A stretch of 64,000 bases of DNA, from the NCBI GenBank assembly GCA_020137815.1, contig CM035351.1, positions 7,874,001 through 7,938,000 of the forward strand. Reading direction: 5' to 3'. The position numbers were made by a program, and so were the translations under genes. Positions 2,974 through 39,500 of this stretch are shown one piece after another. The notes beneath the pieces are model-generated. The model had not been told where the DNA came from and ran no database searches. It worked only from the letters and a program-made list of their open reading frames with translations. The stretch comes from Hormiphora californensis (taxonomy: Eukaryota > Animalia > Ctenophora). The stretch's first letter is position 1. The number at the start of each line of letters is the position of its first letter.

Positions 2974-5918
<2,945 letters not shown>

Positions 5919-7012: not shown

Positions 7013-10000
7013 ATGTCGCTCTTCAACGCCATGAAGGCGCTCAAATACCTTGGCAACATGGATGGGTATAAGGAGGTGATAATCGAGACTCCTCTCACGA
7101 CTACCATCGAGGGACCAGCCAACAGTGTCTCAGAGATACCCCAACCTCACGGCATCCCAATGTCCATGATGCTCCATGTGAGTTCAACGCGTTACCATGG
7201 CAACCATTGTTTTGTACTTGCTTGTAGTGGGAAAACGGTAATGGAAAACTGAGATACAGTAAGACGACACGCAACCGTGGCCAATCAGGGCGCTAGTACG
7301 TGCTGAACACATGCACTTTTTGCCGCACGTTATGCAACGTGCACGTCTCCTTACTGTATTTCTATTACGGTAATACGACTACAAGCAGCACTGTTACACT
7401 TATCCAACTTTGAAACATTGTTTCAGGACGAGAATATTTCAACGGGCAAGTTTAAAGGAAGGAGAGCGGGGACAGGGAGCATTACAGAGAATCCCTTGGT
7501 GGTTGATGTAGAGGCGGATAGGGATCAGAGGCCATCAATGTGGCAAAACAACCTCTCAGGACTATCTGTAAGTCTAACTGTCTTGATATTTGGCGTTTTA
7601 ACTGCCTCCAGACCTATAGCTAGCGTTTATTCGTCTTTACAGGGAGCATTATTGAGAATGGGCGATGTAGCGAGTATGGAACCTATTTCACAGGCGGCTG
7701 GCCCCCTTCCTTATGCAGTATCACAATGAGATGCTGAATACAGAAGTTAACCTGAACCACATCGGAGATGATACCTTTCGGATCGATTCACTGAAGGAAG
7801 CTTACCTAGAACCGTATGTATCATTGCAGCTGTCCCAAGTTCCTTTCCAACAAACGTTTAGTGAATTGTGACACACATGTGACATGATCTCCCGCAGGAT
7901 GTAAGAAGCTGAACCATGAGATTTGTTCGGTGAACATTAGGAAGGCCATCCTGTACCAATCTAGAAGTCTACTGAAGATCATAATTCGAGCTCATAAACT
8001 AAAGTTCATCAAAAATCCAAGGGGCCATATTGTCAACCGAGACAAATCAAGCATTGTCAACATGTTGGATATTTTCAGGTAAATTTTAGAAACTTGTTAG
8101 AAATATACTAACAAACGAAACCCCATCAATTAGAATACAACTTTTGCTACTCCTAGTGAAATACTACAGGAACAAAGAGCTAAATGCCGCTTTTTGGTTT
8201 GTATTTTAGAGAAGTTTGATGTTATATCACTTCCTGCAGGATGTCGCCCCTAATGACGGCGGTGAAGGTGGGTAATGTGAAGGTTGTCAAGTTGCTGCTG
8301 GAGTACGGGGCAGATCCTCTCAACATCAACACTACAAACGAAACAGCACTCTCCATCGGAATCAAGGTACTGAACCATGGTTTATAGAAGCACTTGATCA
8401 ACTATTATTCGGTAGAAACCTTGTCAGAGCATTGACCTGACCCTAGGGAACACACATAATCAACTCTAATTCTATATAACCCCCCTTGTTCCCCCTCCAA
8501 CCCTTATTCCCCTCGACCAGCACTACAATGAGGAGATGATTGAGCTGTTGATAGAGTACGGTGCAGATATTGGGGTATCGCTGTGCATCGCTGGACTCAA
8601 CCGAACCTCTCCCCCTTCACGCTCACAAGAAGCAGTCCCAAGGCATCAACTCTCCGTCTATGGGGTAATTTAACTGATTTCGTTGTCCTTACTTCTAAAT
8701 TTCGAAAACGAGCTGAAACGACGCCCAAAAACTAATTTATTTCAGGATATCCCATTACGGGTTCTCCTTCGAGCCGATATTGATGCTCACTCAGCCTAAA
8801 TTCCTACTAATGACCCGGAACCCTGTTCTGACCGCCTTCAAGGTGGGGACCATCATCAACAAGATAGGAGACAAGAAGGACGAGTACCTGGGTGATTGCG
8901 ACATGCTGGAACAACAAACAGACGACTTTGCGTATTACTACCTGGATCAGTGCAGGACAATGTGGGAGGCCCTCATGCTACTTCACGATCAGGGTGCCGA
9001 CCAGGGGAACGACCTGCTGGACTATGCTATCAAGAAGAAGAAAATGAAGTTCATTTCTCATCACTTTTGTCAGCAGTATATGATGGACACTTGGTACGTA
9101 TTATAGTGAGGGAAAGAAGGATATAAAAACAACCAGCCATCTTAGATCTGACATCTGAGATGTAAGAAATGGTTGATAGACACGTCATTTATTCAGGTAC
9201 GGTGGAGTGCAAAGAGGGAGAACAACGAACACGTGCAAGAAACTGTTTACCCTCCTGATTCTCCACATCATCTTCCCCTTCTTCCTCCTTCACAGCGTCT
9301 ACATCTTCGCCTCTAACTTTGACCTGGCGAACTTCACTAATTTCGGCAACACCAGACCCATGACCCTGTGGAGAAGCCTGCACGTGCCTGTAGTTAGTTT
9401 TGTGGTGGATTTCTTTAATTTCCTTGTTATGATCGTCATCATGATTGCCACGTGTTTAACTGAATCCGATACATCTGAGGACAGCCACTTTTATGATGGT
9501 CCAGAGGTAATTGATGTAATACCTACCCAAATACCCAATTATACTGCCACAGAAAGTTTATTTACCGGACTTCTAGCGCCAGGAACGATAAATGTACGGT
9601 TTATTCAGACGAGTAACTAATTGGTTGACTTATTAACTAATTGATTAATTATTCAGATATTTCTGTGGATGTGTTTGGCAGCTCGGTTCATGGTTGAACT
9701 CGACAAGATCAGGACACAGGGTCGGCACTTCTTTAAGCACGTTGGCAATGTGGTGGATCTGTCTGTATCCATGTCAATTATCATCACCGTCCTGCTGAGA
9801 ATCGTCTCACAAACGACATTCGCAACATACCTAGATGGAAAGTAAGTATTTGGATCAGAACGTCCTCCGTGTATTTATAGATCACCGGCCTAGTGGTTAG
9901 GATGTTTGTATATGATGTTATTTACCGTATGTTTCAGAATGTTCCTGTGGTCCAGTTACATCTACGCCACGGCTTTTCTTGGTTTGATGTTACGGATGCT

Positions 10001-11124
10001 GGAGATGCTGGATATCACATACACCCTGGGACCTCTCGAGGGAGCCATCAGCAAAATGATGACGGTACTTGAAGATCATAGGAATTAGAATCAGAGACCC
10101 TTCTAGAGGGAATTATGAAACTGTCAGCTTTCATTGAAAGTCGTCATTTAACATCTTCTCCCTCATTTGTAGGATGTAATAAAAGTTTGTGTTCTACTTG
10201 CGATATGCATGCTTGGGTTCAGTGTTTCAATATGGACTGTAACCCTTCAATCATACACCTACGAGAGCAGTTTAGAAAACAGAAGCGATACAGCCGGGGA
10301 ATTATCTTATCCAGAGTACTTTAGCTCGTTCAATACAACAATAATTACTCTACTGTGGTCTGCTATGGGTCTGATTGAGCCCGACAACATTGCAATTAGC
10401 TACAACTCAAATGCAGACGCTTATCTAAAGGTAAAACTGACGAATTCATACAATATTTGAGGTAGCTATTTTGTCACTTGTTAGTCAAATGTAGTGGGTA
10501 ACGATTCCGTTCGTTGGATCCTATGTTCACACTAATATTCAATGGTGCTAATGAAATATCCAACAAATCTCTCTCTCTTGTCAGGTGTTATGGGGATCAT
10601 ACATTCTTACTGCCATGATTCTCTTCCTAAACATGCTGATTGCAATGCTCACAGAGACATATGTGTCGGTCATAAACAACGCTGAAACTGAGTGGAAGTT
10701 CGCCCGATCAGTGGTGGTGGTAAAATACACAGGAACCCACCCCTTCATATTTCCCTTCAACCTCATCCTATACCCCGTGTTCCTTGTGTACCATCTCATT
10801 CAGTCCAAGTATGATAGGAAGAGGATCAGGAAGTTTGGGGAGGAGGACGAGGAAGCGATGAGACAATCAGGATTCCTACACTTGGCCATCAAGGAGCGGT
10901 TCAAGGAGAAGTTTAGCGATCTCCTAGACCTACCCTACTACTACCGAAAGAATATATTTGATTTTTACGCGACGGCCCCACTTGTTCAGCAGAAAAAGAA
11001 GAAGGATAAAGATAGCAGCAGCACCAAAACAGCGACTCGTAAAAATAGAACTCAGAGTATGGTTACTCAAAGTAGGATAACCGATTTAAGTGATGACGAC
11101 AAATCAAGTCTGAAATCCGACTAA
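7013..11124 (+). CDS. TRPC-like transient receptor potential channel with N-terminal ankyrin repeats (multi-exon)
   Basis: Ankyrin motifs SPLMTAVKVGNVKVVKLLLEYGAD and NEEMIELLIEYGAD; TRPC linker NPVLTAFKV...DFAYYYLDQCRT...LLDYAIKKKKMKFISHHFCQQ...W; pore region FSSFNTTIITLLWSAMGL; S6 LFLNMLIAML; TRP box EWKFAR. Confidence 0.92.
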
Positions 11125-11564: not shown

Positions 11565-13842
11565 TCAAGGCAGCATTTCAAAAGGACGCCTGACCCTTGA
11601 GATTCGAATGAACCTTGAGCACCTCCTAAATTGTGGGGAGCAGAGTTTTACTAGCACAATCACACCCAGGATCGCCATTAGCAGTACAATATAAACATCG
11701 AGACGCTGGTGGACTGGAGTCACTATTTCACCGATATAGACAGGAAGTGGATCAACATAGAGGTGGTTTTCGATCATAGCCTTTACGAAGATGGTGAGGG
11801 CTCCACCCGCTACTGAACTCATGTGCATCATACAACCATCTGATATGATGAGGGGGGAATTAAAAATATATGTAGATAATCTATCTGAAATATGGATATT
11901 AAACATGTTCTACTCGCCACTTTACTAGAATCATACCTCTTAGTTCGGCCTCTGAAAGAGGTTTTCTCATGGCAAACTTTTCCGCTGCTCCTGCGTTCTG
12001 CTCTTCAATCCCACCGTTAAAAAGATTTCGTCGTGCTGCCGCCCTGAGATTTATAAGCTGGTTGTCCACACACAGCAAACCGAACCAAGGGCCTTTTTCG
12101 CGGCATTGTGCACAGTATATACTTGTTTCAGTTTCACAGTTGTAACTAGTGTTTACTAGTGTTTACTACTAGTGACTAGTGTTTACTACTAGTGTTTACT
12201 AGTGTTTACCTTTCCTTTGCTCGTTTTGAGTGGAGGGCGATAGCTTCTGGAAGATGGGATCCATCGTAGGGTGCATAACAACCATCATTTCTCTGCCAAC
12301 CTAGGAGCATGTCCAGTATTCCAGGACGTAGAAAATCTTCCACAAACCCTGCTCCACCACAAAACATGACCTGAACAATACATTAGATATAGTGTTGCTA
12401 CAGATACAGCATGGTTGCCATGGTAACTACAGATACAGCATGGTTGCCATGGTAACTGCACACACACACACACCTGTTCCATAATGAGATCCTGATCTAC
12501 ACCCGGGTCTACACCCCTCTTGAAGATACCCTCCATCTCATTATATATGTTACTGCAGAACAACCTAGCATAGTGAGCCTCAATGGCAGCCCCTCCTCTT
12601 GACTCGATGGCATTGGTACAGTTGAAGTGCTTTAGAAGAAAGAAGAAGAGGAGCTGGTGGGTAACGGAGTACTCCCTCTGACCACTGTCAGTTATCTGCT
12701 GCCAACATTTCTCCGTGATCTAGGGGTATTCATTAATTGTTACAATGAGATCTGATCAGGATTAAAGGGTATTCATTATAATGACACCATATATTTCAGT
12801 GACCGGGTAGAGCTCATTGTTCAGGGGTCATTGTTCAGGGGTCATTGTTCAGGGTTGTAAATGGGGTTGGATGATGTTATGGTGTGAATAGGTGGTGCGT
12901 GCACAACGGTATGAACATTACTTTGTTTTGTTGGGGAAGGAGGGTCGAACAAGGCAAACATTACTCACGGTGCATTTAGAGCCCTTATAGTGACCACTCC
13001 CGATAGTTCCCATTAGACAATCGTCACTCTCCTTCGGCTCGATGAAAAACGAACTTTTTTTACGGAATAACAGACCTATAGGTTAGTGGGGAAATTGAGT
13101 GGACTATGAGGGACCTATGAGATCGTGGAAGTAGGGGAAATTGAGTTCAATTGGGTGTTTTGTTGACCATTATAAGTAAGTGCAGTACACGGTACCTGAA
13201 TCAACTCGTCCGAGAGCGCCAGACAATAAGTTCTGGTATACAAAGGGTTGACTGAGAAGTTCAGAAAACTTTCCGTACTGGACGGCAGCATTTCTTTGGC
13301 ATAGTAAATCCCTCGCCCCTGCTACTTCCCTCGCATACCGGGCAATGTCCGTTACCCTTGCCATGATATCGGGTGTTGGATCTTCAGCATTTAGAATAGT
13401 CGACTCTAGGCCTCCTGTAAACGATATTAACATCAGTTAGGTTTAGAGGGTTCACATGGTCGTGTAGTTCTATCATACATACCTTCAGAGTTCAGGACTA
13501 ACTCTTACAAATATAATGTGTTTGTATCTGAAATTTCGAACTGAACAATTGGGCTATATAGGTATGTGATATATTGACACGTAATATAGAATGTAAATCA
13601 CGACACATTAATTGGCATGTACCTTGTATCATTCTGATTCCCCACATTGAATCGACGATAAGTGAGCCCCTATTCGCATCAAAATAACGGAGAAGATGCT
13701 CTATCGCACTGAGAGTTCTGTTCACATCACTAGATGTGAAGTACGGCCTCCGAACGTGAGATGGTCTAATCAGGACCCCCTCCGTGCTGACGGGTAGCAA
13801 GGCAAGTAGTATGAGGGTGGAAGTGGGACAGGATAGGAACAT
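11565..13842 (-). CDS. UPF0764 / C16orf89-like protein (exons approx. 13842-13623, 13414-13196, 13078-12969, 12719-12474, 12370-12210, 12044-11937, 11840-11565)
   Basis: Signal peptide plus the family motifs ESDDCL...KC|ITEKCW...YSVTHQLLFF, DLIMEQVMFCG..GF...LLGWQRNDGCY and DGCMMHMSSVAGGAL. C-terminal hydrophobic segment. Confidence 0.85.
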
Positions 13843-14241
13843 TGATCACCTCCCTCTGGAATTGAAAACACGTGTCATTTTAACTTGTTGAATAACAACA
13901 AAACACGAGGAAATGTTATTGTCGAGTAAGGGCCAAGGGGTATAGCAGCTGGGATTGCAGCAGAAACAATTCAAGAGGAGTAGCAAAGATTGTGGCGGAA
14001 GTTATAAAGGTGCCAATATATAGGGATCTCATGTACTACTAAGTAACTTTATAGCTGTACAAATACATCCTGTAATCATAAACAAAACCGATATATTATA
14101 TCTATTGTAAATGGTTAGTTTGATCCAGTTTAGAAGGCCGAAATATCGATCATGTACTGCATAACCGTAGTTCTAGGCTAATGACAGACTGGGAACAATT
14201 AGGATTACTTCGTTCAGCTGGACATGCTCAAGAAGGGGTAT

Positions 14242-15508: not shown

Positions 15509-16898
15509 TCATGACACTAAAACTACTAGAGTCACTAGAAGTAGATGTAGGATAGTGTTCTGGAGTCTAGTGGCTGAGTTTCCAACACATACGGGGACGG
15601 AGGGGCACCACTTTTGTTCTGATGTACACGTCACTTGAGAGGAACCCTGAAAACAGAATATATTTCATATTTCATAACTTGGTACTTACTCATATTATGT
15701 TTTTAAATAAAACTAAAACTAAAACTTTGATTTCGTTTGATTGGTATATAACAGCTAACCTGAATTGTATATCCTTTAGAGCACTCAATGGTAGCTACCG
15801 ATCCCACGTTGAAAGGCGGGGCTCCTTCTATTGCACTTTTCTCTGCAACAACCCGGGCATTCGCAACTTGGGCCGTAATGTCACTGCAGCCAGCTGTAGA
15901 ATAACAAAATTAGTGTGTTACCATGGAGATTATATTTGAGAATTTGTTGGTTGCCATGGTTACCTGTACATTTCACCATGTTTGAGAGTGATGGAGAGTA
16001 TCCTGAAGAGAGGCACCTGGTGGAGAACTGGCCAAGTTGATACATCTCCGGAGCGTACCCACTCTTACATCCCACCTGGGGGTTTCAAGAAAATATTCAA
16101 CATGTATTAAGTATCTTCTGAAGAAGTCCATTAAGTTTGTTAACTTTGCTAAACATGAGCGCTATAATATCGATTCTATTTGATTTTACCTTTATGGTAG
16201 CATCAATATCAGGCACTATGGGTGCTGCACTTTTCACCACAGAGAGACTCTTGCTGGGATAGGTTGCTGACCAGTGTTGGGTGCTGTCAGATGGAATAGG
16301 AGAGCACCCCACCGCACACCATGTTGTCACCGCGGTGAAGATATCTGGTACGAAACTACCACTCGTACACTTGACCACCACAACCCCGGCCTGACTTCCA
16401 TCACTAAACGCATCTATTGCACCTTGATCCCTGAGAGGTACAATTTAATAAAACAAAGTGTGCATCTAAATGAATCCCGGAAACGGTCGAGCACTGTGAG
16501 AACAGCGATCTAAATAGAGGATCCCAAAGTTTGGTACATAGCACAGTCCTTTCCTGATAATAAATACATTACTGATGCATGGTTGTCTTCCACTTACACT
16601 CCGTATTGTCCCCGGACATCGTTGGTAAAGACCTGTGTGGCGGGGTATTTACAGGCCACTGTATATGTGTCACCATCCTTGAAGGTCGAGGGAAGGTTGT
16701 TTCCTGTTTTCAGATCCTTTATTTGATCTACTGATATGGTTATCTTATCACTGGAACAGTCTGCTGCCAACGCAATACCTGTAGAGGAGGGGTAGTATAA
16801 TCTGTAATGCATGGTGGGAAAGGTGAAATTAAAAAGTTAGAACGAATAAAATTACCTTGCAGAGTGAGGGTGATGATTGCTAACAGAATAGTGCTCAT
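15509..16898 (-). CDS. Triple CCP/sushi-like GPI-anchor-type surface protein, paralogue 1 (6 exons)
   Basis: MSTILLAIITLTLQ|GIALAADC...YTVACK...VFTN...VVKCTSGSFVPDIF...WCAVGC...VGCKSGY...TRC...KCT|AGC...PPFNVGSVATIECSKGYTIQ|GSSQVTCTSEQKWCPSVPVC, then the hydrophobic tail ILHLLLVTLVVLVS*. Confidence 0.8.
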
Positions 16899-16986
16899 TT
16901 GGATAGCGTACCTTCCAAGTTTACATGACTCTACATTTCAGGGCAGAAGAGGGTTAACAAAACATTGTATATCAAATAAAACACGA

Positions 16987-18487
16987 TCAATAAAAGTAAT
17001 AAATAATAAGAAGTGAGATAAAAATCATTACAAAAGATAATTTATTTAGTTGGGTAGCATGTGAAGCTGTGGCGGCAGTTCCTAATTTACACTCAGGCTC
17101 GCTGGGGTACCACTGCTGGTTCGACAAACATGTCACAAACTCCACGCCCTGGTGGAAAGATTTGAGTAGCTTGATATGCTGTGTCCGTGGTGTGTGTCAG
17201 TATGATTCAAGTCTTGAATTCCAAGGAAGGATGTAACATTACACCTTGGTTGGATAAATCTTTGGATACAAAACATAAATTTACTTAGCATTGCAATACC
17301 TTCGAATATCCACTCACATACAAACAAAAATCGGTTGGAGCACCGGGATGCAATGATACACAAGGTCTTGGGACCAAAACTTACGGGATTGTAATAGCCG
17401 GTGGAGCATGATACGGTGGCAATTGCCCCAACCTGGTAGGGTGCAGCCACCTCCGTCTCACTCAGGTCAGGAGTTGTGTCTATCGCACCATTCAGGAAGT
17501 TACTCTTTATGTCCTTACAACCCGCTGTAGAAAAACTTCTGTGACTCGATATTTTTCAAAAATGAGGAGGGGGAGTAGGTAACAACTTACAAGTACATTC
17601 GACGAGAGTGTTTATTGCAGGGTCGTATCCGCCCTCCAGGCACTGGGTATCCAGGGAGCCGGACTGGAGTGTAGCGGGAGCATACCCCTCCCTGCACCCC
17701 ACTTCAATGAAGTTATCTGAGCGGGTTATGGGGGCACCAGTCTTGTGATAGAGATATGGAACTTGCCTTGTAGGTTACCGCATGAAACTTCTCCATGTCC
17801 TCTGGAATTGGGCTACACCCAGGCTGATGGAAATACATGGTGATTTGATATCTGTGTGTAACATACACTTTCAATACCATGATAAGCATTGATTGGAAAC
17901 CGATTACCTAATTACATAATTAATTAATGTACCTGCACACCAAGTACTGATTCCAGTAAAGATATCAGGGGTTATAGTGAGGATTCCAGACTACCTTTTC
18001 ACATTTAACTTCAATCTGCCCCTTCTGGCTCCCATCGGTTGTTATTTCATCTATAATGTCTGTATCCCTGGGATAATGTGTATGAAGTGCAGTTGAAATC
18101 CATCAATCCCATGTGTTTATTCATTCCAAATATTTTACACGTGTGTCTCAAATAGGTTTACTTACACTCCGGAGGTACTCCTGATCTGGTTGACAAACAC
18201 GTGCTTAGAGTTTTTACAAGTCACCGTATACGTTTTATCCTTGGTTAAATAAACAGGGATTATTTTGTCATCATCTTCTTTCTCTGGAACCAACTGGAGA
18301 TCTTTCCTACTTTCAATTAGCTTCTCGCTGAGGCATTTCTCGTCTAGATTTGTCGATTCCTCTTCATCATCGCCTGTGTATGAGCTCAGGTAACATGGAG
18401 TGAACTACCAAAAACAGCCAATTCCGCAATTCCAACATTACCTCTTATAATTGAAAGTGAACTGATAAGTAGCAACAACAACAGCAT
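16987..18487 (-). pseudogene. Triple CCP/sushi-like paralogue 2; three +1 frameshifts in this sequence (pseudogene or consensus error)
   Basis: Colinear with paralogue 1 (MLLLLLLISSLSIIR, YTVTCK..HVFVN, DGSQKGQIEVKC, PDIFTGISTWC, GCSPIP, VGCREGY, PYQVGAIATVSCSTGY, VTCLSNQQWYPSEPEC, hydrophobic tail). The frame breaks near 17992, 17823 and 17767. Confidence 0.7.
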
Positions 18488-18751
18488 AACAAGGGAGGTG
18501 GCCGGTTATTAGACACACACAAGAAGACTATATATCTTGAGAGAGAGAGGTACCTGGTTTCCTGGTTCTGTCCTTGTTACATACACTCACACACACTCTG
18601 TTTTCTCTCTAATAGATAGTGCTTCAATTGCTGCCCCGACCTAGACAAGCAAATACAACTTTGGAGGTTGCCACTTCCAGTCTCACAGTTTCCATGTTTT
18701 GGTTTTACTATGTTACTATTTTCTACGGTGATCTGAGTTTATACCCCCCTT

Positions 18752-20851
18752 ATGAAGGATATGATATTGTTCCTGCTTTGTCAGTTCTTGTCTGGTGGTG
18801 TCTCCACTACGGTAAAAGAGAGACCTGTCTATAACAACTGTGTGGTACCTGGCGGCTGGAAGGATGAACTGGTCGTAGCGCCAACTCCCAGAAACAACAT
18901 TATCCGTAACTCAGAAACCGCCGTGGTAAGCTTACTGAATATACTTGACTTGGGTTTGATAAAGTGGTTTATCAAGAGCAATTTTATACTCCGGCCCCAG
19001 AGAGTTCCGTTTTATAAAAACTGTAATTTCCGGAGCACCTCTTGAGAGACAAAAAGTTGTTGGAGGGTCGCTTGTTGATCTGTTGTTAAACTATTTAACC
19101 AAGTTAAGAGAGGAGCCATACAACATATATATCCGCGATATTCATTTAGTAACCATGGGTAACCATATTTCTCCTTGACAACTCTCTCGGATCAAATTAA
19201 ATCAAATCAACACGATAACAGTCGCATTTATAATATCAAAAAGATCTCCCATGAAAATTAGTATCGCACATTAGTGGGGAGACAGTTTACTGGCTCAGAA
19301 GGCGATGAATGGAAGTAATGAGAAGTTCTAGCTCTGAGATATTCTATTATAGTATGAGACTTATAAAAGCGAGTAGTAGTTATGAACATTGAACCAACTT
19401 GTCACGTCAAATCTATATCTACGTCAATGAAGAAATCTATACTACGTCAATGGAGAGCTTAAAGAGTAAAAACCTGTCGGGAATTGCGCTGACAGTTTTT
19501 AACTGCGAGGGGGGGGGGGTCGGCCGATATATTAACTGAAATAAAGCATCAGGTATATTAAGAAGATTGTACGACAGTAATTCTTCTGTCCCATGCAGGT
19601 GATGTGCAAGAATGCTGGTTTTACATTTATCAACTCTGTGTATGAGATCCAGGGGGTCTACGCCAAGTCGATATTCCAGGACTCTGCAGTGACAGTGACT
19701 TGTAAATACGGGGCCCTCTCACCCAACTTCTTTGAGGGACGAACGAGCTGGTGTGGACGTGAGTATTGATAAAGTTAGATCATGCTAGCAATGCAATGAG
19801 ACGAGAGACAAAGTTAAGCCTTGTTCGAATGTTCGACCCTCTCTCATCCCACGACGGCAGTCCAGAGATAAACGCGAAATAACTAATAAGTGGTGAGGGT
19901 ATCATAGAGCCGAAATTCACAACTGTATTTCCCTTATGTACAGAGGGATGCCCCAAGGCTCCGACGGATGCGTATACGGCTCGGTACGGGAACACGACTG
20001 ATGACCTGGATGCTACTGATCTCTACCAAACAGAAGGGAACCTGGCACCAGTGTACCCTCAACCCATGTACCTTATAAAGTTCTCGTGCAACACCGGGTA
20101 CAACCAGATCTATAATGATAAAGGGTCCGCTTATGTCCGGTGCAACGAGGGTGGCTATGACAGGATTCCTATATTTTGTACATGTAGGTCGAGCTATAAT
20201 ATGAGTCATAAAGTTTCCTTTTATGTTCACAATGAGTCTTTAAGTTTAATATAATGTTCAAAATGAGTCTTAAAGTTTAATATAATGTTCACAATTCAAT
20301 CATTCTACATACGTTAGGCAAACAAGAAACAACCCACTGAGATCTGAACAACTTTATATAATTTCAGCTGGATGTGGGGATCCCGAGCTGACACCTACAA
20401 CAGGGAAAGCCCACACTTTTACCCCGGTACCTGATACAAGTACCATGACCTCCGTGGATCCACCCTACAGAATAGGTAATCATTCATTTAGGTGCTGTAC
20501 TTTTGAAACCACTGTGTATCCGTTTAGACCTAACGGATGAGAGGGTCGAAAAAGGTATCATGTAGATTGTAACATTTCACCCCTACTGCTGCAGGCTCGG
20601 TGGTAACGGTTAACTGTGAAGGTAAATCTGGGGATAATGAGGAGGCAGTCGTTACCTGCACCTCCGCTTATGGGTGGACGGGTAGCCTAGATTGGTCGGA
20701 CCTGGAATGTAGATATAAAGAGCCCACGAACAGTAGTGAAGCAAAGACAATATCCCTGTCAGATTTAAAGAAAAAGAACTCGGCTGCAAACTGTTGGAGC
20801 ATTGTACCATTCGTGATACTGATATCCTTTTTATTATTTGTTGTCCGATAA
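18752..20851 (+). CDS. Triple CCP/sushi-like GPI-anchor-type protein, paralogue 3 (exons approx. 18752-18925, 19599-19758, 19944-20244, 20368-20475, 20595-20851)
   Basis: Signal peptide, KERPVYNNC, VMCKNAGFTFIN, VTCKYGALSPNFF...WCG|QGC, FSCNTGY...VRC...FCT|SGC, PPYRIGSVVTVNC...VTCTSAYGW...C, hydrophobic C-terminus. Confidence 0.8.
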
Positions 20852-20906
20852 CTCAGATCTGTTGATGCCGCCCCAAAATAACACAACACCCTTCCCGTGT
20901 AGCACA

Positions 20907-23185
20907 ATGTGGTTACTAGGATTCCTTCTGTTGCCATTGGCAACGGATGCACTCAAGGAACGCCCGACATACAGTAGCTGTACAATACCTGATGGATACG
21001 AGAAACAACTAAACATCATTCCACCCCTGAGGGACAGGGAGACGCAACATGGACAGACAATAACAGTGCTTTGCAGAACTTCTGGACACACTTTCATGAA
21101 CCACATGTACTCGGTAGGTGGGAATGACGAATTCTTTTTGTGTTTGTTTGTTTGTTGCTTTGTTTGTTTGTTTATTTGTTGCTTTCTTTGTTTGTTTGTT
21201 TGTTTTACTGACTTGCACTCTTTTCAGACTAATGGGGTATCACCAACAGATATTTTCTTCTACTCCTACATTCTGATAACATGTCGGGATGGCTCGCTCC
21301 AGCCTAATATATTCCTTCAGACTAACTGGTGTGACAGTAAGTATGTGGCTGATTTTACAAATCACACAATGCCGCGAAACAGGCCCTTTGTTCAGTTTGT
21401 TGCACGGCTCAAAACCAGATTTTGGACAAAATTCGGTTACTTCTACATGCCAACTACTATAAAGAGATTATCCCAGTAGTTTAACTCAACATTGATTGAA
21501 TTGTTGAGTAAGGGCCGTCTTTCACCCCTTAACCAACAAGGATTGAAGGTATATAACAGTTAACTCCTAAACCACCGAGGGAAAACTTCATAGTTAAATG
21601 ATGCGATTCCTAGTAACTGATCTCTGCGATTGAGTGATCCGGTATCTATAATTCCGGTAAAAGTTGTATCCAATCGTATGTGTCGTGACGGCGTGGGGTA
21701 AAACTGCACAACAACCCTTTTCCTGCTTCCTGATAGAATCGAAATTAGCTGTTAAGCAATTAAACTTTCCCACAATGATGTAAGGCAAAGTAAGATCTCG
21801 ATATATAACTGTTTAGCTCAAGTTATTCCTTCCTCCATGGGCGAAAGTCACGTTAAATTTGGAATTTTGTAATCAATTTATGTAGCTGAATCTCCTTCCG
21901 AAACCCCCAATATCAATAAAATTTCAGAGGGTTGCTCACAGTTCCCGTCCTCGTATTATGCTGCTACATATGGATACACAACACTGGCACGGAGAAAGAA
22001 CCCACTTCGGAATTACGGTAACTAAAAGTTCTTTAATTCTTCCTAAGAACAGATATATGCTATTTTCTCGGAACCAAGGATTATTAAATACCTGCTCGCC
22101 AGACGTTTTAACTATAATGGGATGATCTTGAAGAGTAATAATATATATCTACAAAGGTGGTTAAATGATATTATTGATATAAAGCTGCAGCAGCAGGCTC
22201 CCTCATGAGTCGCAAGGCAGAATTGAACTGCTCTCATCGTGCGTTTTGTCTCGTGAGACAGAAGAAGAGAATTATATCAAAGATATTAAATAGAGTTCCT
22301 GGAAAGCAATTCCATTATACAAGAAATGTGTCTGATATTACTGCAGGTGTGCTACAAGCCCCAGTATCAGCGGACCCTCTCTATGTTGTGACGGCTTCAT
22401 GTCAGCCGGGCTACACCCAGATAGTAGGGGATAATGGAGCTGCCTCCGTTAGATGTACAGAAACGGGATACAACAAGAAACCAATCACTTGCGCTCGTAA
22501 GTATAAACTGGAGCAGCTTCTTGATTTTATAGTAAACCCGAATTCTACAGCTATATAATATAATAGAGGGCTTCATGTTTTCCATAAACTGACATCTCAC
22601 CATTCACAGCGGGGTGTGATGGGTCTATTTACTGGTCTATTTACACAACAATATATGTTTCAGCGGGGTGTGATGCACCTTACAACCTGAACTACGATAC
22701 ACTGGACACGACCCTGTTATTCTCTACTGTCACACCCAACACAGCAGGCTCCGGAGTTGCTGAGTATGCTACCGGAACGGTGGTCAGTGAAATTACAATC
22801 ATGAAACTTGCTCAGACCTATACAGTTTAGGACTGCGAAGACACATAAAAACAACATAATATTACTAATTTGACTAATGTGATAATAACCTCTCTAGATC
22901 ACGGTAGACTGCTACAAGTACGCCACTACAACGGAGAATAGGGACACAATAGTGACCATGACGTGTGTATCGGGGTCGGGATGGAACAATTTAGATGCTC
23001 TGAAAGCCATCGATGGTGGGGCATGTGAGAAGAGCTACACGGGAACGGGACAGCAGTCGAAGGGGCTAAATGGGTCAATGATCATTGATGTACTGACCAA
23101 ACAGAAAAAGGGTGGTTGTAGCTCTATTTCATATTCAACTACTGTTTTTAGTTTATCAATATTTATCATATTCCTTTTTAATTGA
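20907..23185 (+). CDS. Triple CCP/sushi-like GPI-anchor-type protein, paralogue 4 (exons approx. 20907-21113, 21228-21337, 21928-22017, 22347-22496, 22664-22782, 22898-23185)
   Basis: MWLLGFLLLPLATDALKERPTYSSC, VLCRTSGHTFMN, ITCRDGSLQPNIF...WCD, ASCQPGY...SVRCTETGY...TCA, YATGTV|ITVDC...MTCVSGSGW...C, tail TTVFSLSIFIIFLFN*. Confidence 0.8.
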
Positions 23186-23264
23186 ACCTTTTTACAACAA
23201 TGATGTACCTACAATTTCCAAACACTATAACATTTCAAGATAATATCATATTTGTATATATAGC

Positions 23265-24591
23265 ATGCTATGGGCATTCCTACAGTTGATGTTTCTGGGA
23301 ACTGCTACCTCAATAAACTGTGACATAGATCCAATATGGTCGTCATACCTCAACATAGTACCGTTACCCAATGGGAATGCCCTTCAGGAAAACTCAACTT
23401 ACATCATCGCTTGTATCAAGGTTTGTGATGTTAACCGTTTAATGTCGTTCTGGTAGCTACACATTCTCTACCATTAAGTACACTGATCAACAAGCAAACA
23501 ATAAACCTGCAGCTACCAGGGTGGTAGCTAAATCAGTACAACATTTCAGTTCGGGGAGACATTTGTGAACAAGGTCTACGAGACGGAGGGTATAACACAA
23601 ACTGGAGTGTACACAACTGGGGCCATCTCTGTCCAATGCTACGTCAACGGGACTGTGATTCCCGAGTTCTTCGCTGAGACCTATAACTGGTGCAGGAGTA
23701 AGTAGAGCGCCATTGAAGACGTGCTAGATGACTGGGTGACTGCCCCTCTTTGTTTGAACACCCCGATTTTATCTAAACTAAATCCCCATGTCTCAGAAGG
23801 TTGTGTCAGTATCCCTACCACGTCCTACACACTAAAGTACCCTGCTGGATCGTCCCGAACTACAGAGATGCTGAGCCCTGTTGCCCCGGTTGAGGAGGAC
23901 ATCTTGGTGGAGTGTGCAGCCGGCTACGTACAGGTATGATAATGAGGGGTCACAAAGGATCACAAAGGTCCAGGTACTACATCTTCCAGGTATATGCAGC
24001 AAGTGCTGTGTTCTAATGTTGAGATTCTCCCATACAGAACTCCTCTTGAGTTCAGTATCTCCACTGCAAGCGCCACAGTATCTCTCATTCACATTCACTT
24101 TGCTATCATTTTCACCCCTAATTTCCTATCTAGGCGGTTGGCGATACAGGTAGCCAGAAAGTGCAGTGTGAGGGCGGTTCTGGTAACTACAACAACTACC
24201 TAATCAACTGCGTGGAGGGGTGTATGTACCCGATAGAGGGGGAGGGTAGCTCAATCAGCAGTATACCCAGCTATGAGGTGGGACAACCTCCATTCGCCAT
24301 AGGCACCAAACTCAAGGTAAAATTAGCATAGTAATTGTTCTAATATCTATTATCTAACTATTAAATACCATATATAAACCAACTAAACTATTTCTGTAGG
24401 TGGATTGCCGAGGATCTACATCGTCGAAGGAAATTGTTTGCAGGAAGAACCAGGGATGGGAGGGTTTGAGCGACCTGACTTGCAAGAAAAAGACTGTCAG
24501 CATTTTGGGAACAACATCACACGCCACAGACAATTATCATCTCATTTCAGCTCTTCTGTTAGCTCTTGTTACTCTTCATTTCATATTATAA
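23265..24591 (+). CDS. Triple CCP/sushi-like GPI-anchor-type protein, paralogue 5 (exons approx. 23265-23420, 23550-23697, 23797-23933, 24133-24316, 24400-24591)
   Basis: MLWAFLQLMFLGTATSINC, YIIACIK|FGETFVN, VQCYVNGTVIPEFF...WCR|KGC, VECAAGY...VQC...NCVEGC, PPFAIGTKLK|VDC...IVCRKNQGW...C, tail LISALLLALVTLHFIL*. Confidence 0.8.
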
Positions 24592-24677
24592 CGTATACAT
24601 AAGTTGGAGTCTGAATTACTAATTACCACACAAATAATCTTTGGTCTGTGTAATCTTTAGGTGATATGTGATGAACC

Positions 24678-26648
24678 ATGATATCCTTTCTGCTTAGCAT
24701 TCTACTTGGACAGGGCTTCACAGGTACCAAGCAAACTCCTATCTCTAGACTTGGTCCAACTAACTCCTTCAGAAAGAAAGAAAACTAACTCCTTCAGAAA
24801 TCTTATTATAGCTCTCCCCCTGGCTCAACTATCATAGCTCCCTCACAACTCTATTTCAGTTATAGTTATATAGTAACTAATTCTCTCCGAACTACCACTC
24901 TGTTTCAGATGTATCCTATGTTAGGAAGCGAGCTAGTGAGGACTGTTGGGAGGGAGTGAACTGTACCTACTGTGAGGTGCCCACCTACTACATGACTCAA
25001 CTCGTTATAGTACCTAATCCTAGTGGGTACAGAATTAATAATGGCATGTCAGCTACTGTGTACTGCAAAACGGTAGGTTTTTACCATTTCTCCATGATGC
25101 ACATAATTACACTCATCATTCCAAAAGGAATGTATCGTGCGACCCTGTATAACACTGTATTCTGTACTAGAGGTTATAAAGATCTTGCTAAGTTCTTCCG
25201 AACCTCCAAATTTCAAGTCTCTATCTTATCAGGAACCGGAGATATGACAAATTTGTTATTTCAGGGGGGTGACAGTTTCAAAAAATCCGACTTTACAGCA
25301 AGCCACCAATTGCAAACAATCAGATAATTATACTAAGATTTATCCTGTTCCTTATTACAACTCCCTCTCTCCTCCACAGATAGGAAAGAGTTTCATTAAC
25401 TCGGTTCTGGCAGTGTCTAATGTGAACAAGGAGGATGTATTCTTCAACGATGGTATCACAATAAGCTGTGATAAAGGCACCATCTCACCCTCTGTATTTG
25501 AGGACGATCAATGGTGTGCATGTGAGTTTAATAATATGAGTTTGAAAATTTCTGTCAGGCCAATGCTCAGATAGGCCACAACATCAAAGTGTGGACACTT
25601 ATTGTGGACACTTGTTAGTTGTTGTGGACATACGTCCCGTCGTCCCACACCCGGTGTCCCAGTAAATTTGGGACACCGGGGTCCCGCATGGTAATGTCAA
25701 CAAGCCTAGCAAGTGTAAATCCAGTTAAACACTGTATCCAACCAAACTGATGCAATACATGCTATACAAACAAATGAACTGCTGCGTGTAATACTTGATA
25801 GTGTGAATGACTTGTTATACCTTTCATGGAGGCCACAATAAATATTCTGAACAATGAATGAACAACAAACAATGAATTTCTTTACAGATGGGTGTGCAGA
25901 GATTCCTACTGACCAGTACCAGGTCACATACCCAGAGTTATCATACCAAACCGACCTGGCAGTCACACCAGTCTACACTGACTCAACAAAGGTAACGTCA
26001 TGTCGGTACATGAAGTCTCACAAGATCAAGCCTCATTCTAATGGCCGAAGGTGGCCGGTTCGACCACCCTTTTTACTGGAAATGTATTAGGATTTGCGAC
26101 GTCATTAACAACCAACAGAACACCCTCATATTATTTCAGTCGATAAAAGTTGACTGTAAAGCCGGTTATAGTGACGCTGTAGGGGATGCTGGGGAGAAGA
26201 GTGTGCGATGTACCACTAGCGGGTACACAGGGTACATTAGATCCTGTGTGGAAGGGTGTGATTACCCGCTAACTGATGGAGCTCACACACTGTCCGTACA
26301 ACCCAATTACGAGACAGGGTATGCGTATTACCCGGCTAGCGATAACACGGCAATCACTGTAAAGTGCGCTGGAGGTAGGAAAGCTTTATGTTAAAGTGCA
26401 CTGAAGGGAGGCAAACCCAAAACTCGAGAATTGGAAACTGAAGTGATTATTCAAATATGTTACTTTTGTGCTAACCCGCCATTAAATTTTCAGATGACTA
26501 CTCGATTCCGATTTACTGTGTGAAAAACCTGGGCTGGGTCAATACAAACCTACTTTCCTGTGCCAAGACAACTTCTGGTGGAGTGACACCAAATATGAAC
26601 AATTCTCTTTTTGTGCTTTTTATTTCCCTGATTTTATTGGCTACGTAA
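24678..26648 (+). CDS. Triple CCP/sushi-like GPI-anchor-type protein, paralogue 6 (exons approx. 24678-24723, 24909-25072, 25379-25521, 25889-25991, 26140-26374, 26494-26648)
   Basis: MISFLLSILLGQGFT, VYCKT|IGKSFIN, ISCDKGTISPSVF...WCA|YGC, VDCKAGY...SVRCTTSGY...SCVEGC, ITVKC...IYCVKNLGW...C, tail LFVLFISLILLAT*. AATAAA near 26666. Confidence 0.8.
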
Positions 26649-26744: not shown

Positions 26745-28782
26745 TTACCGCTCAATTTCAACATTATGCTTGAGATCAGAAAACAGAACAATCAGAAAGA
26801 GAGCTGTGCTCACTATGAGCAAGAGAGCTAAAGCAGCCGTTACACTGTAATCGAGAAGGGCTACAACAATAAACAGGGCAACAGAGGCAAACATCTTGCC
26901 TCCCCCGTCAATGAGTCCGAAACCCGAGTTCCTTGCCAGGGTCGGGTACAACTGGGGCAGGATCATGTACATAATAACAGACATGGAGGAGAGATTGAAG
27001 ACAAAGAACCCGAGGAAAAAGTACATGGCAAGAACGGGCATGCAGACGAAAAGAAGAATGTTACAGATGGTGGCCAGTAAAGCATACCCTTTGGCAGAGT
27101 CCAGTTGTCCCACTAGTCGGGAGGAGAGGAACGCAGAGGCGGTACCCAGATACAAGACCAGGGATAACAATATCCCGTTAGTAAAGTCCTTGTTGGATAG
27201 GGTCACACATTGCAGAGATGACTCATCAACTGAGCGTCCTGGTTCCTGTGGATCGCCCATCATCTCTAGACCCTCCATCCCACAGTAATCAGTCACCAGC
27301 ATCTTTGTGTAGATGAATATAATGGCCTTGAAAACTGTCTGTAGACAAGAGTTTAGGAACAAAACTTTGAAGGTGTCTGCCCGGAGTTCTGAGCTGCATA
27401 TCAGGATGAAAGAATGATATATCCTCTCAGGTTCTAACAAGTCTGATTCTGATTGGTCGTTCTCTTCGGTGGTAATGATGATTTTCTCAAAAAACTCGGC
27501 AGATTTTCTCGTCTTATATCTGTAAAAAAAGGTTCAAAGGGATTAGAATACTACTTATTACCGTAAAATTTCTATATATACGAATTTATCCTATGAAGGA
27601 GCAGGATAATTACCGCAAAGCTTCAACGACAGCCTGGTGTTGGTTTTTAACACTCAGGTACTTGGGAGACTCTGGTAGGATGAATAGTAGGACTGCAGGA
27701 ACCAGAGCCGGCACTGCTATCACTATTGAGAAGAGTCTCCAGCCGTATGCGTTTAGGAATCCTAGTCCGATAATGTTGGCCAGTGTCATGCCAGCACACC
27801 AGAAGACTGTTATCAGGGAAACTCCTGCTGACCTAGTGAGATATTGTTTAGTGGTGAACTTAAAGCAGTATTCGCCGGGATGCAAGATCATTACTACTGC
27901 TATTAGTAGATAGAGTGTGTTGTACCTAAAGTGTGTGCTGGACACCTCTGCCCAGAAGGTGTAGGCGATGGATAAGGAGCCCCCGTAGTTGAGACCACAC
28001 ATCATAGCAGCAGGTAGGAATATCCAATAGGAGGGAGATACCGCACAAACAAGGGTGAAGATGAACACCATGCCGTTAGTTAACACTGCCGTCTTTCTCC
28101 TGCCGTATCTGTAGAATGTTTGATTATGAAAGTTAAGTTAGTTTTTAGTTTCATTTTCCTCTTTCGCTTATGATGGGGATCCCGATACAGCAAAGTCGTG
28201 GTTATGAAGTAACAGCTATTTCAAGTATGATTGAAATTAAGAATGAATTCATTGTATAACATACTTGTCAGACAGGGGTCCGAATAGTATAGATCCCAGC
28301 CCGGAAGCAGTGAAGGTCAGTGATGTAACAAATGCCACCTGTGTTGCATTAAGATTCCACTCGCACCTGTGACACATGTGTGGGTCAAATGTAGTAAATT
28401 ACAGCTCAGTGTCAAGTACAATTAGTGAACTCGAGAGAGAGAGATGACTGGTTATAACACCTGTCCCATGTACTTACGTGAGGAATGGTACGATGATCGC
28501 AATATAGGCCAGCTGCAGGGACTCTGCCATGGATACGAATCCCAGGGAAACAAGATACATCCCGTCATACCGATTAAAGGGGGACTGATCTAGAATCTCC
28601 TGGACAGACAACCTCTCAGGGGAGTCCAGGGCTAGGGAGTGAAGTTCCCCGGTAATGTGGATTGGAGCTGATGATGATGTCTTGGAGACGAGAGGATCCA
28701 GCTCCGAAACCTCCGTGTCCGACATTTTAGGAAGAACAGCTGATCGCCTCGATGGTGCTGAATCAGACCCACTTTCTGTCAT
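26745..28782 (-). CDS. MFS transporter of the SV2/SVOP (sugar porter-like) group (exons approx. 28782-28478, 28366-28265, 28108-27613, 27519-26745)
   Basis: TM1 SLGFVSMAESLQL; motif A FGPLSDK|YGRRK; GWRLFSI...LPESPKYL; PQLYPTLARNSGFGL; many hydrophobic helices. Confidence 0.88.
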
Positions 28783-29473: not shown

Positions 29474-31371
29474 AGAGATAGAGAGAAAGATAGAGAGAGG
29501 AAGATAATAATTTAAAGAAGACCGAGAGCAGTTCTATGCTCAACAAAACAGTAACAAGGACTGGGAAGCGTTGTTTTTACTCAACAAGGGAAGCGAGGAA
29601 CCAGCTGTACTCTGATCTGCTAAATCGAACACTATCCAACCAACACGTGTACACACAAATATCGGGAAATCTGGACGTGTTTGTGCAATGTGTAAACGTA
29701 GTGAAAGAACGAAGAAAAAACTGCGATAAAATAATGCAGGGATATATGCGTATAAGCAGTGAGCCGCAACTGTTTGATTGTATATGTACAAGATAAGACA
29801 ATCAGATATCTGGTAAATGTGAGACTGATCAATAGAGATCATTGGTACACAAAACAAGAGAGCGCTATTGTTATTTGAATATAATATCTCATGTAGTATA
29901 ACATGCTGTGTATAGTGAGGTAAGATGAGGAACACTGTATTTGAAACGCCCCATGTGGACCTTGTGTGTAACACAGCAGATCACCATCTGCCAAAAGTAA
30001 AGTACAGATCACGCACTATACCATGGTAGACTTGGAGCCATGTGAATATAGTGAATGTAGACCTATAACAAAGTGTACTACTACTCGCCCACAGAATGTG
30101 TGTGTGTGACATATAATAATGTTGACAATTTTGAGAGTCGAGATTACACACAATACAAATGTGGTGTATCGAATATCACGCATCTGTTGAGCATACAAAT
30201 CTAGCACATATTATTATTACTGCATGATAAAAGTCGCAATCTCAAATTATCTTTCAAAGTATCCTCATATCAATATATATATCGCTCTCATTATTGTTAT
30301 ATCGATACACACCTATTGCCACTTCTTGACGTACGCTCATTGCGTCACTAGCTCATTCAAAATTTGTCAAAGATTTCCTGATGGGAGAGACATCGCCCAA
30401 CAATTCTATCACTTGACAAGAAAAGGTAGTGTTGGAAATATGTTCATATGTTGTCCTGAGGTATTATGCGTCGATAAGATCCGTACTCCCCGAATCCTGT
30501 AGTTTCCAAAACATCGTGGGAAATGGCCTTCCCCCGGTCCGTTGGACTTGAATCCACGCAGAACAGTAATCTGAACAAGTGAACAATTATTGGTTTGGGT
30601 ATAAACTATGAACTCTATCTTAGTAAGTCCTACTGTTAGTCAAGTTATTGAGGGGGTTGTATTGAGAGGGGTGATATCGTGCTGTATCTGCATTATACAG
30701 GAACAACGAGGAACCATTAATATTCAACATATTGCGTGGGATAGTTGCATAAATTATATTGCTTTATAATGTGTTGGATAATGGGGCTGCGTGGGCGGCT
30801 ACATTGTAAATCACGGTTTGTGTTTTGCTACTTATACTGATAGAAGGTATTGTAGTCGCCTCAATTGTTAAATTCAAGGTAACTTTACTAACATAAAGAT
30901 GATGATGGCAACAGCACAGAGAGTCCGATAGCAGATATCCATCTTGAAACACAATGAAACAAAATACGAACTCTGGGTGATCTCGGAAGAAACAGAAGTG
31001 ATCTGATACTTTTTGAAATATAGACAGCAGATCTCTATTATAGATGCGTGTGTCTTTTAATAGTTTTACCAAATCGCCTCCGTTATCCACTTTAGTCTTA
31101 CAGATCGATGAGAGAAAGAAAGAGGGAGATAAAGAGAAAGCAAGGGAGAGATCAGATAGAGAGAAGAGATTTAAGTTTTCGCTAATGTGAGTGATGTCCG
31201 ATAAATGTATCCCACCACCACAGCCGCAGTCTGTAAATGATCATCTCTTCTTCTTCTTCTTCTAATAAAACAATCGATTTTATAAAATTCAAAAGGTCAT
31301 AAGAAGTCATCACGCACATAAAAGTTAAAAGAAAGCAAATACACAGCTAAAACAAGTTATAACTAGGTTTC

Positions 31372-36570: not shown

Positions 36571-39500
36571 ATGATATTAGATCTGCACACGGCGCTAAGT
36601 AATCTTCCAACGCAACAGATCAGACAAGTATGGAACGAGGGCTCTCTCTTCTCTCCAATCAGCACCGGAACCTGCTCCAGTGCCGTAGGAAAGGTAGTAT
36701 ATGTACTTGTAAGATTGAAAATATATTGTTGACTTGTTGGCTAGCTAATAAGAGAATTGAAGCATAGTAATAGTAGTAGTCTGATGGCTGCTCTCATGTA
36801 CACCAATTACATAAACCACCATTGAGGCTCGGAGCGCCCACAAAAACATTCGATAAATCTGGTCTCTCCTTTTCTAGCCAATTCGATACAACAGAGAGGG
36901 TACTTGTGTTACAAGTACATTGCTACCAGTACCCTCTCTCTCCTTTGAACCAATATACGTCACTTACCATGAAACAAGGCTAGCTTCACCACCGACCACA
37001 ATAATCTCACCATTCAATTCATACACTTAACACTCCTGGCTACAATTTGTAGTACAAAATACCCACAATTCACTTTGATTTGGAAGGGATTCCTGGTAAA
37101 GTGCTCGACAGGATCAAGATTCTGAAGCTGATTACAAAAGCTTGTTCACAATTCATTCACTATTAAATATTTGAGACTGAGAGGTGGGAGATAGGTTGGT
37201 TGGAAACTGGAGAGGTCATTGACAAAAAGAGCTCATAAATTAGTCATGTACATGTACATGTGTGTACTGTGTATGCGGGGGAACAAACCAGGTGATTGGA
37301 TAAACGTTTACACATCAAATACACACAGTTTCAATGCACATAATATATTTGACAAAGGATGGATATTCCAGGCAACTTGGAATATATGGATACAGTCAGA
37401 GTGGAATCAGCAAATGTTACACAACTGTTACAACTGTTGTCTGTGTAGCAACTCTGCCGATCACAAATTAACACAAGTTATCAATCAGGTCAGTCAGCTA
37501 CTACCGGTGAAGCGTTACAAGATCAGGTCTCACTACGAGGGGGTATTCGCCCTCCAATTCACCCGTGACATGACCTGTCTGGCAGTGGGCTACGGGTCAG
37601 GTGACGTGACGCTACATGATCCCTGTACAGCTAAGAAGCTCTACAGTCCCAGTAGGAAAGCAGAACAGCTTCCGGTTACTGGACTGCAGTTCCGGTCCGA
37701 TGACCACGCCCAATTGGTGTATTGTTTGGCACACGGCCATATCTTCCTGCAACAGGTATTATACACAGGCTAGACTGCCTTTCACATACCCTTTACATTT
37801 GTAAAGGGAGGGTTAGAACATAACAATAATACACAAGCACTCGGAGGAAAATGGGAAAAATATATATGCGTGTAAAATGAACTTAAAAATATATATATAC
37901 GCGTGTGTGGTGTTGTGGGCGTGAGCTGTGACAATTTGTCTATATATGTGTTACAGGAGGCTGATGTTTACTAATATGGTTTCCATATTGACATATGAAG
38001 TGTCATGTGTACCACGTGCATACTCTAAACACACTGCCACTATTCTCCATGTCTTTGAGACATAAACTACATGCAGTCCATGTCTTTTAGACCATCCGTA
38101 ACACCAGACATTGTCTACCACTGTCCACTAAATAAAATTCCACAAGGCACCTCTCTAAACTTTAAAAACTTAAGACGCTGTTAGACTCTATTATTTTCAA
38201 GGAAATTATTGTCCGCATACGAATCAGTTTATCAGAGTTGTCGGCCGCGTCAATTCAAGAGACCAATTTTAAAAGAGATATTATAACAAGCTGTTATAGA
38301 CCGTTATGTTGAGCAAGCAATTGTTTACAATGCGTTTAAACAGCTCCTATTATATATCTGTAATTACTGGTCTGTAACAGCTTCTGAAAGTCATCCAATG
38401 CCAGTCCTTCCATACCCATTAACAATATATAATAGGACAGTAATTAAACTTCTATAAATGGGGTTCTTCTTCTACTTGAGTCTAAAAACTACTATAGTAA
38501 CGAAGTATATAAAGGAAGAGATAGACTTCTATTCATCTCAGCACCCGGCTATGTGTGTAAAGCTTCAAAGCCTTACTGATACTAATCAGTATCGCTATAC
38601 CAGACATGTGTTAAAAGTCTATTCTTAAGATATGACACATATATATCGAACTTTGATACAATACCGCCCTGGCCAAAAGTAACAAAAGTAAAATATAACT
38701 GGTGTAAACTGTTGTTGCATCCTTTGTGAAAGATGTGACAACTAAAGGGGATGCAGTGCATCCGATACACCAACACTTCTGTTACACTTTACTTGATCCA
38801 GCCGTCAGAGTATTGGCCTGGTACAGCGATCCAGGCCACAATGTGATATTATTATTAGCTTAATATACTTAAATATACTTTGAGTAGGCAGTGCCTACTA
38901 GGCCTACTAGGCACTATACGTGTTGTGACAAACAAATCCAAATAACACAACGTGCCAGACTAATTAACCGGAGAGGTGGTCTACAAATATCATAGAGTCA
39001 TCATAGTATCATACACCATAATATGACACTACTAAACACTGCACACTACAGAGACACTACTATGTGGTGCACTTATTCATGATTCACTTTGAATATTAAT
39101 TTCCTTACTCATCACTCATATTAGTAATGGGCAAATTGGGCATGCATCCTACACATTCATTATGTCATGTCCAAATGTAACATGATCCAAGTTATACGTC
39201 ACATAATCCACAGGATCAGGACTAGGAACCCTCTGCCATTTGTGCCGTCTTGGGGTGAGAGGGTCTAGGGAGTAAGGCCAGGGAAATTAATAATATATCT
39301 GCATTCTTTTCAGATTGATGAAGATGGGACAGTAATTGATGCAGCAACAGTTATTGAAGGTAATTTTAATTAATAAACCAACCGGGAACCAACCTTGGTG
39401 ACATAGACACCTGGCGCGACCGAGATTGAGCGGGGGTCGCGCCAGGTGTCTATATCACCATGCCAAGAACCAACCCAGGTATTACAAGATCTGTCTCTCA

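Follow-up and report, generated by a model that had tools for sequence, protein, structure and literature searches.

Two divergent rows of paralogous Sushi/CCP-like genes as candidate spliced-leader operons in the ctenophore Hormiphora californensis

Here we examined a window of 64,000 nucleotides (nt) from the ctenophore Hormiphora californensis (assembly GCA_020137815.1, contig CM035351.1, positions 7,874,001 to 7,938,000 of the forward strand). Within it, positions 15509..26648 of the window hold six paralogous multi-exon genes, named g1-g6, in two divergent rows. The genes of each row follow one another at very short distance, and the subject of this analysis is whether such a row may be transcribed as one RNA that is resolved into single mRNAs by spliced-leader (SL) trans-splicing, in the manner of an operon.

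Six paralogous genes in two divergent rows

The gene models were built from the sequence, and all of their introns (28/28) are of the GT-AG type. These models bear out an earlier sequence-only reading of the locus, which had described six paralogues in two divergent arrays. The genes and the spacer between the rows are as follows (lengths in base pairs, bp, or amino acids, aa).

15509..16898, minus strand: g1, downstream gene of the minus row; 6 exons (16898-16856, 16778-16598, 16430-16190, 16075-15964, 15893-15760, 15646-15509); 282 aa
16987..18487, minus strand: g2; 6 exons (18487-18442, 18373-18166, 18067-17933, 17823-17591, 17524-17385, 17148-16987); frame-disrupted
18488..18751, no strand: head-to-head spacer, 264 bp between the divergent ATGs
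18752..20851, plus strand: g3, head of the plus row; 5 exons (18752-18925, 19599-19758, 19944-20183, 20368-20475, 20595-20851); 312 aa
20907..23185, plus strand: g4; 6 exons (20907-21113, 21228-21336, 21928-22017, 22347-22496, 22664-22779, 22898-23185); 319 aa
23265..24591, plus strand: g5; 5 exons (23265-23420, 23550-23697, 23797-23933, 24134-24316, 24400-24591); 271 aa
24678..26648, plus strand: g6, end of the plus row; 6 exons (24678-24723, 24909-25072, 25380-25521, 25888-25991, 26140-26374, 26494-26648); 281 aa

The open reading frames (ORFs) of g1 and g3-g6 are intact, and pairwise identity among these five is 26-33%. Contigs of run X1, which come from a relative and which we guess to be RNA, match g4 intron 1 and the junction of g4 exons 4 and 5. 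These contigs are mostly less than 90% alike, fall in pieces on g1, g4 and g6 only and cross none of the gaps between genes, so they are neutral with regard to co-transcription. A search for RNA data that contain this stretch listed none. Intron 4 of g4 also contains a short duplicate of the exon 5 start with its own AG (22597-22690, plus strand); according to run X1, the downstream copy is the exon that is used.

By eye, the products of g1 and g3-g6 each have a hydrophobic segment at both termini and three Cys-rich modules. The products are Sushi/CCP-like, with three modules each, and are predicted to be cell-surface proteins, probably carrying a glycosylphosphatidylinositol (GPI) anchor. The Sushi/CCP assignment comes from two ctenophore orthologues, P0001 (Pfam) and P0002 (fold). 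Pfam Sushi scores 46.5 bits on P0001, against a cut-off of 20.7. The model of P0002, the g4 orthologue, was built from a 25-row alignment and has a predicted local distance difference test score (pLDDT) of 83. Its first matches are CCP-repeat proteins (E 3e-6), at about 11-18% identity and whole-chain template-modelling (TM) scores of 0.14-0.21. A model of P0001 made without an alignment gave no confident fold (pLDDT 33). Through these orthologues, the family shares the Sushi domain and CCP fold with tandem Sushi/CCP proteins such as beta-2-glycoprotein I, factor H, CD55 and CD46, but identity and TM-scores are low and a complement role is not implied. No title or abstract start in the literature searched describes this protein family.

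Short gaps within the rows and a repeat-rich spacer between them

From the short distances between the genes and from an AG shortly before each downstream ATG, the sequence-only reading had derived a two-gene and a four-gene operon. On re-measurement, the four stop-to-ATG gaps have exactly the lengths reported, and all four AGs lie where they had been placed.

16899..16986, minus strand: g2-g1 gap, 88 bp; AG at 16931-32, 32 nt before the ATG and followed by a start-stop mini upstream ORF
20852..20906, plus strand: g3-g4 gap, 55 bp; AG at 20901-02, 4 nt before the ATG, with the top score of the four
23186..23264, plus strand: g4-g5 gap, 79 bp; AG at 23262-63, 1 nt before the ATG
24592..24677, plus strand: g5-g6 gap, 86 bp; AG at 24659-60, 17 nt before the ATG; two upstream ATGs come after the AG

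The other co-oriented gaps in the window measure 562, 1094, 1476, 429 and 1681 bp, so the cluster gaps are shorter than all five (exact p=0.008, the five comparison pairs being hand-made models without RNA support). The distance from stop codon to AG is 49-76 nt, which leaves room for little beyond a short 3' untranslated region (UTR); tunicate operons that have hardly any intercistronic DNA, or none, are similar. Furthermore, in none of the four pairs is the last donor of the upstream gene in frame with the ATG that follows; the sequence-only reading had stated this for the three plus-strand cases, and it also holds for the minus row.

The 264-bp spacer contains three dinucleotide-repeat tracts (at least 4 units), at 18513, 18539 and 18588, which are three of the four such tracts in the cluster. 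Of the 9 row-head genes, 6 have a tract at most 300 nt upstream, against 1 of 4 downstream genes (g1). As background, tracts occur in 24% of all windows and in 3% of those inside the cluster, and there are none within 500 nt before g4, g5 and g6. By our own repeat-tract heuristic, dinucleotide tracts may mark ctenophore promoters, and the spacer is a candidate shared bidirectional promoter.

Orthologues and conserved linkage in other ctenophores

In the sequence searches, every named match is a ctenophore protein. A representative family search gave 43 matches; 20 were checked, the named ones being from Bolinopsis or Mnemiopsis and one having no visible organism. A search with the g4 N-terminus had Mnemiopsis leidyi P0001 as its sole match (1 of 105 candidates). 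These word searches are insensitive, as the same search missed the g4 orthologue P0002.

The tree was computed on 26 rows; the near-duplicates P0045-P0051 and the majority of short fragments were excluded. In it, g3 groups with the N-terminal half of P0001 (support 100/100), and g4 with the C-terminal half of P0001 (95/94) and with P0002 (99/95). Likewise, g5 groups with P0042 and P0008 (100/99), g6 with P0007 (100/99) and g1 with P0028 (93/78, not firm), while g2 joins g1 (99/97) and g3-g6 form one clade (97/96). These groupings indicate that the copies are old and that each row has grown by tandem duplication. Identity is 57% between g1 and its full-length relative P0028, 48% between g5 and P0008 and 58% between g6 and P0007.

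P0001, a 514-aa Mnemiopsis model, corresponds to two cluster genes in the same order: residues 1-261 are the g3 orthologue (57%) and residues 267-462 the g4 orthologue (59%), so that the order g3 then g4 is conserved within one model. The g4 part begins at the second exon and so misses the initial 70 residues of its unit, which leaves half a module. P0019, whose last exon is related, is 68% like P0001 at the junction and continues into its own hydrophobic tail. Because of the missing half-module and the tail of P0019, P0001 most likely merges neighbouring g3 and g4 orthologues of the same orientation into a single annotation; gene models that fuse members of an operon are a known artefact (PMC7986045). 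Colinear blocks shared by Hormiphora and Mnemiopsis hold at most four genes (PMC8527503), which makes the linkage of g3 and g4 in Mnemiopsis noteworthy.

Since P0001 is annotated as a single protein, it could be proposed that the row is one cis-spliced gene making longer multi-Sushi fusion proteins. We hold this to be very improbable. Each unit has its own N- and C-terminal hydrophobic segment, the last donors are out of frame in every pair, and the defects of P0001 just described, together with the course of P0019, speak against a true fusion. In addition, P0002, P0008, P0007 and P0028, the counterparts of g4, g5, g6 and g1, are separate complete ORFs.

 The ORFs of P0002 and P0008 run unbroken through 9/9 intron positions (5 of g4 and 4 of g5). 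Both proteins are listed in Logan with 2 contigs, the longest being 4,823 nt, and seven other Logan-held family members that were checked have contigs of 1,011-2,198 nt. Spliced orthologues of g4 and g5 probably lie on one RNA contig in a third ctenophore, the identity, order and strand being presumed from the metadata of the listing; among the relatives, this is the strongest pointer. When g3 exon 3 was used to look for a g3 orthologue on the 4,823-nt contig, P0001 was the only protein to come back from 9 candidates, word searches of this kind being insensitive. A metagenome scan of 103 stretches gave one locus, L001 (1,477 nt), which carries exons 2-5 of a g3 orthologue and ends before the gap. 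The g3 exons match separate exon blocks there, so this genomic orthologue is split as in Hormiphora.

The operon reading and its competitors

We give a probability of about 0.58 to the reading that the plus row, g3-g6, is an operon resolved by SL trans-splicing. RNA polymerase II would start in the 264-bp spacer and read through g3-g6 as one RNA. The leader would be added at the AG of each gap to yield single mRNAs, and each upstream mRNA would end at or near the acceptor, as in tunicate operons. Such an arrangement would deliver the surface proteins together to the same cells. Of the two operons first proposed, the four-gene row is thus likely; for the two-gene row, g2-g1, the same mode of action is less secure since g2 is frame-broken, and we place it somewhat below even odds.

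The machinery is available in the phylum. SL trans-splicing affects at least 56% of Hormiphora Iso-Seq reads and also occurs in Mnemiopsis (PMC8527503), in agreement with the initial claim that it exists in ctenophores. Since SL addition is so widespread, an acceptor before an ATG does not suffice to distinguish an operon from a trans-spliced gene with a monocistronic RNA. A search of the window for the 3' end of the leader followed by a donor motif gave 0 matches, with 1.1 expected by chance.

SL-resolved operons have been described in nematodes, tunicates, flatworms, chaetognaths and Hydra (PMC7986045, PMC12460157, PMC3273482). In tunicates, operonic and monocistronic genes receive the same SL, which makes spacing the discriminating feature; in Ciona operons the median distance from poly(A) site to acceptor is 1 bp, and in Oikopleura the spacing is about 31-33 bp, with a 60-bp cut-off (PMC7986045). 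The genes of Ciona and Oikopleura operons stand head to tail at very short spacing, as do those of the cluster, whose gaps of 55-88 bp come near the tunicate cut-offs of 60-84 bp (PMC7986045). Unlike these operons, the present rows hold paralogues of one predicted surface-protein family, diverge from a common spacer and have putative SL sites. Chaetognath operons consist of genes less than 250 bp apart with an SL on at least one and have no operon-specific SL (PMC12460157); the cluster gaps fall within this distance, the comparison being one of spacing only. In the RFC140/flp operon of Hydra, likewise a non-bilaterian, an acceptor AG in the short intergenic region suffices to resolve the bicistronic RNA (PMC3273482). 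That operon is experimentally proven and joins unrelated genes; its gap measures as much as 417 nt and includes a U-rich element as well as a predicted poly(A) signal, in contrast to the smaller gaps of the cluster.

Several observations weigh against this reading, beginning with the gap AGs themselves. An acceptor matrix was trained on 68 cis acceptors (28 from the cluster and 40 from neighbours, with one dubious site dropped and two re-placed manually). The gap AGs score -2.0, 1.8, -1.6 and -0.7, and the median of true sites is 3.9; only 1-19% of true cis sites score as low, and 6-23% of intronic decoy AGs (n=236) score as high. The AG of the g2-g1 gap combines the lowest score with the longest AG-free zone (134 nt). 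In two of the four gaps (g2-g1 and g5-g6), upstream ATGs come between the AG and the start of the gene. Furthermore, all four gap AGs are TAG, as against 10/68 cis sites (Fisher p 0.001), of which 58/68 are CAG; either trans-splice sites differ from cis sites, or the gap AGs are not splice sites. Taken one by one, the gap acceptors are weak.

These results lend some weight to a reading in which the gap AGs are unused, transcription starts in or just before the gaps with short unspliced 5'UTRs, and the close packing is a by-product of tandem duplication. In a shuffled-gap test that ignored the -3 base, no single gap clearly exceeded its shuffles (p=0.39, 0.05, 0.30 and 0.20), and the TAG bias points the same way, but the combined p is 0.035. 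A composite test was also applied, which asked for a YAG at most 35 nt from the ATG, an AG-free zone of at least 20 nt and a branch-like motif. It was passed by 4/4 gaps, by 0/9 row-head genes and by 15-21% of shuffles per gap, as well as by 32/68 cis sites; 7/71 decoy YAGs passed on zone and motif only. This test is post hoc: a general branch motif was adjusted to introns of the window, and the product over the four gaps, 0.0009, is optimistic because the gaps had been seen before the thresholds were set. There is also hardly room in 55 bp for both a promoter and a 3'UTR, and the probable common RNA contig of the g4 and g5 orthologues speaks for transcription across a gap. Overall, we consider unused AGs improbable.

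The donors and poly(A) signals raise a stronger competitor. The features concerned are the following.

20619..20627, plus strand: donor-like site in the last exon of g3, cut after 20621; 281 nt before the g4 AG and out of frame with g4
26745..28782, minus strand: convergent MFS transporter gene (Pfam), its stop 96 bp from the g6 stop

The sequence-only reading had called the gap acceptors donor-less. For g4 this does not stand, as the site in the g3 last exon equals or outscores 94% of 49 true donors, and a 5'UTR of g4 cis-spliced from a promoter inside g3 is therefore possible. Two weaker donor-like sites lie in the g4 last exon, at 22903 and 22917. In the last exons of g2 and g5, no donor-like site exceeds the 10th percentile of true donors. 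Similarly, the four gaps indeed lack AATAAA and one follows 18 nt after the g6 stop (about 26666), but this does not serve as an argument, since an AATAAA within 100 nt after the stop is seen at just 1 of 15 gene ends of the window (7 of 15 within 400 nt; one end coordinate is a few bases off). The lack is normal here and thus uninformative. Poly(A) hexamers with one mismatch lie 26 nt before the junction in the g3-g4 gap and 28 nt before it in the g5-g6 gap; two of four gaps is within background, as 20/69 cis acceptors have one in the same zone.

For g4, the nearest AATAAA comes 127 nt downstream of the stop and lies in exon 1 of g5; for the MFS gene, it is inside the g6 last exon, so that the 3' ends of g6 and the MFS gene likely overlap. 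Compact 3' ends are thus also seen without co-orientation. Overlap of separate transcripts can by itself fuse assembled contigs, and the 4,823-nt contig, known from listing metadata alone, could have arisen in this way. Tandem paralogues also tend to stay linked without co-transcription.

On these grounds, each gene could be driven by a separate promoter located in the last exon or last intron of its upstream neighbour; the gap AG would then end an outron that receives the SL or a cis-spliced 5'UTR intron, and the 3'UTRs would overlap the next gene. The donor-like sites in g3 and g4, the position of the g4 AATAAA and the closeness of the g6 and MFS ends fit this, as do the wide use of the SL in ctenophores (PMC8527503) and a CA tract in the last intron of g2, 299 nt before g1. 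Against it stand the last exons of g2 and g5 without such donor-like sites and the lack of repeat tracts before g4, g5 and g6. Moreover, up to four promoters would be needed within coding-dense DNA, and the five other co-oriented pairs keep at least 429 bp. We regard hidden promoters as unlikely, though to be taken seriously, and continue to prefer the operon for the plus row. One point from the literature also counts against an operon: in chaetognaths, metabolic genes are over-represented in operons, and genes for signalling and development are under-represented (PMC12460157), whereas predicted surface proteins are found here.

For the minus row, the state of g2 is a further difficulty. Its exons 3-4 (about 17995-17740, minus strand) contain three +1 frame jumps and two in-frame stops, so that the paralogue-like reading passes through frames 0, 1, 2 and 0 with a net shift of zero; this damage was absent from the sequence-only reading. 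The splice sites are canonical and both gene ends intact. An alternative donor was tried as a rescue and rejected, as it skips the first two frame jumps and leaves the third. In this assembly, g2 may be a null allele, a pseudogene or a local assembly error; the clustering of the lesions within about 170 coding nt is compatible with both the first and the last of these.

Several other features were noted in the window. An inverted repeat (44389-44998 and 45179-45788; 610 nt, 99% complementary, 180-nt spacer) is possibly a foldback element. At 30464-30942 on the minus strand, a small two-exon ORF with a hydrophobic N-terminus, a possible secreted peptide precursor, lies downstream of a multi-exon membrane-protein gene that looks seven-transmembrane-like by eye. 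The exon at 3826-4260 (plus strand) has about eight tandem 14-residue repeats rich in Ser, Thr and Asn, is mucin-like by eye and belongs to a gene starting at 2044 with a hydrophobic N-terminus. The neighbours at 654-1481, 7013-11124, 11565-14032, 36630-42120 and 61054-62300 include a calcium-channel alpha2-delta subunit, DUF4735, WD40 and a Kv-type channel (Pfam) and an ankyrin/TRP-like channel (by eye). A search with a Kv-channel exon gave no match at E<=1e-20.

The plus row is probably a known kind of system in a phylum for which no operon report was found in the literature searched, most subscription journals lying outside that search. The words 'operon' and 'polycistron' do not occur in the main text of PMC8527503, and a term search of the chromatin paper PMC12221973 found no mention of operon, leader, trans-splicing, bidirectional, GAGA or polycistron. 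In its boldest form, the proposal would be a bidirectional 264-bp promoter driving two polycistrons of old, one-to-one conserved surface-protein paralogues, with the SL added at TAG-type acceptors unlike the CAG-type cis sites, gene order preserved in three or more ctenophore lineages and a decayed g2 persisting only as the transcribed leader of g1; these would be the first ctenophore operons described. That whole combination we judge unlikely. If the operon reading is true, it extends operons to a phylum among the first to branch off in animals and would account for the merged gene models seen when ctenophores are annotated, and other ctenophore candidates may surface through a screen for merged models like P0001. 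The operon would then co-express a set of paralogous surface proteins rather than housekeeping genes.

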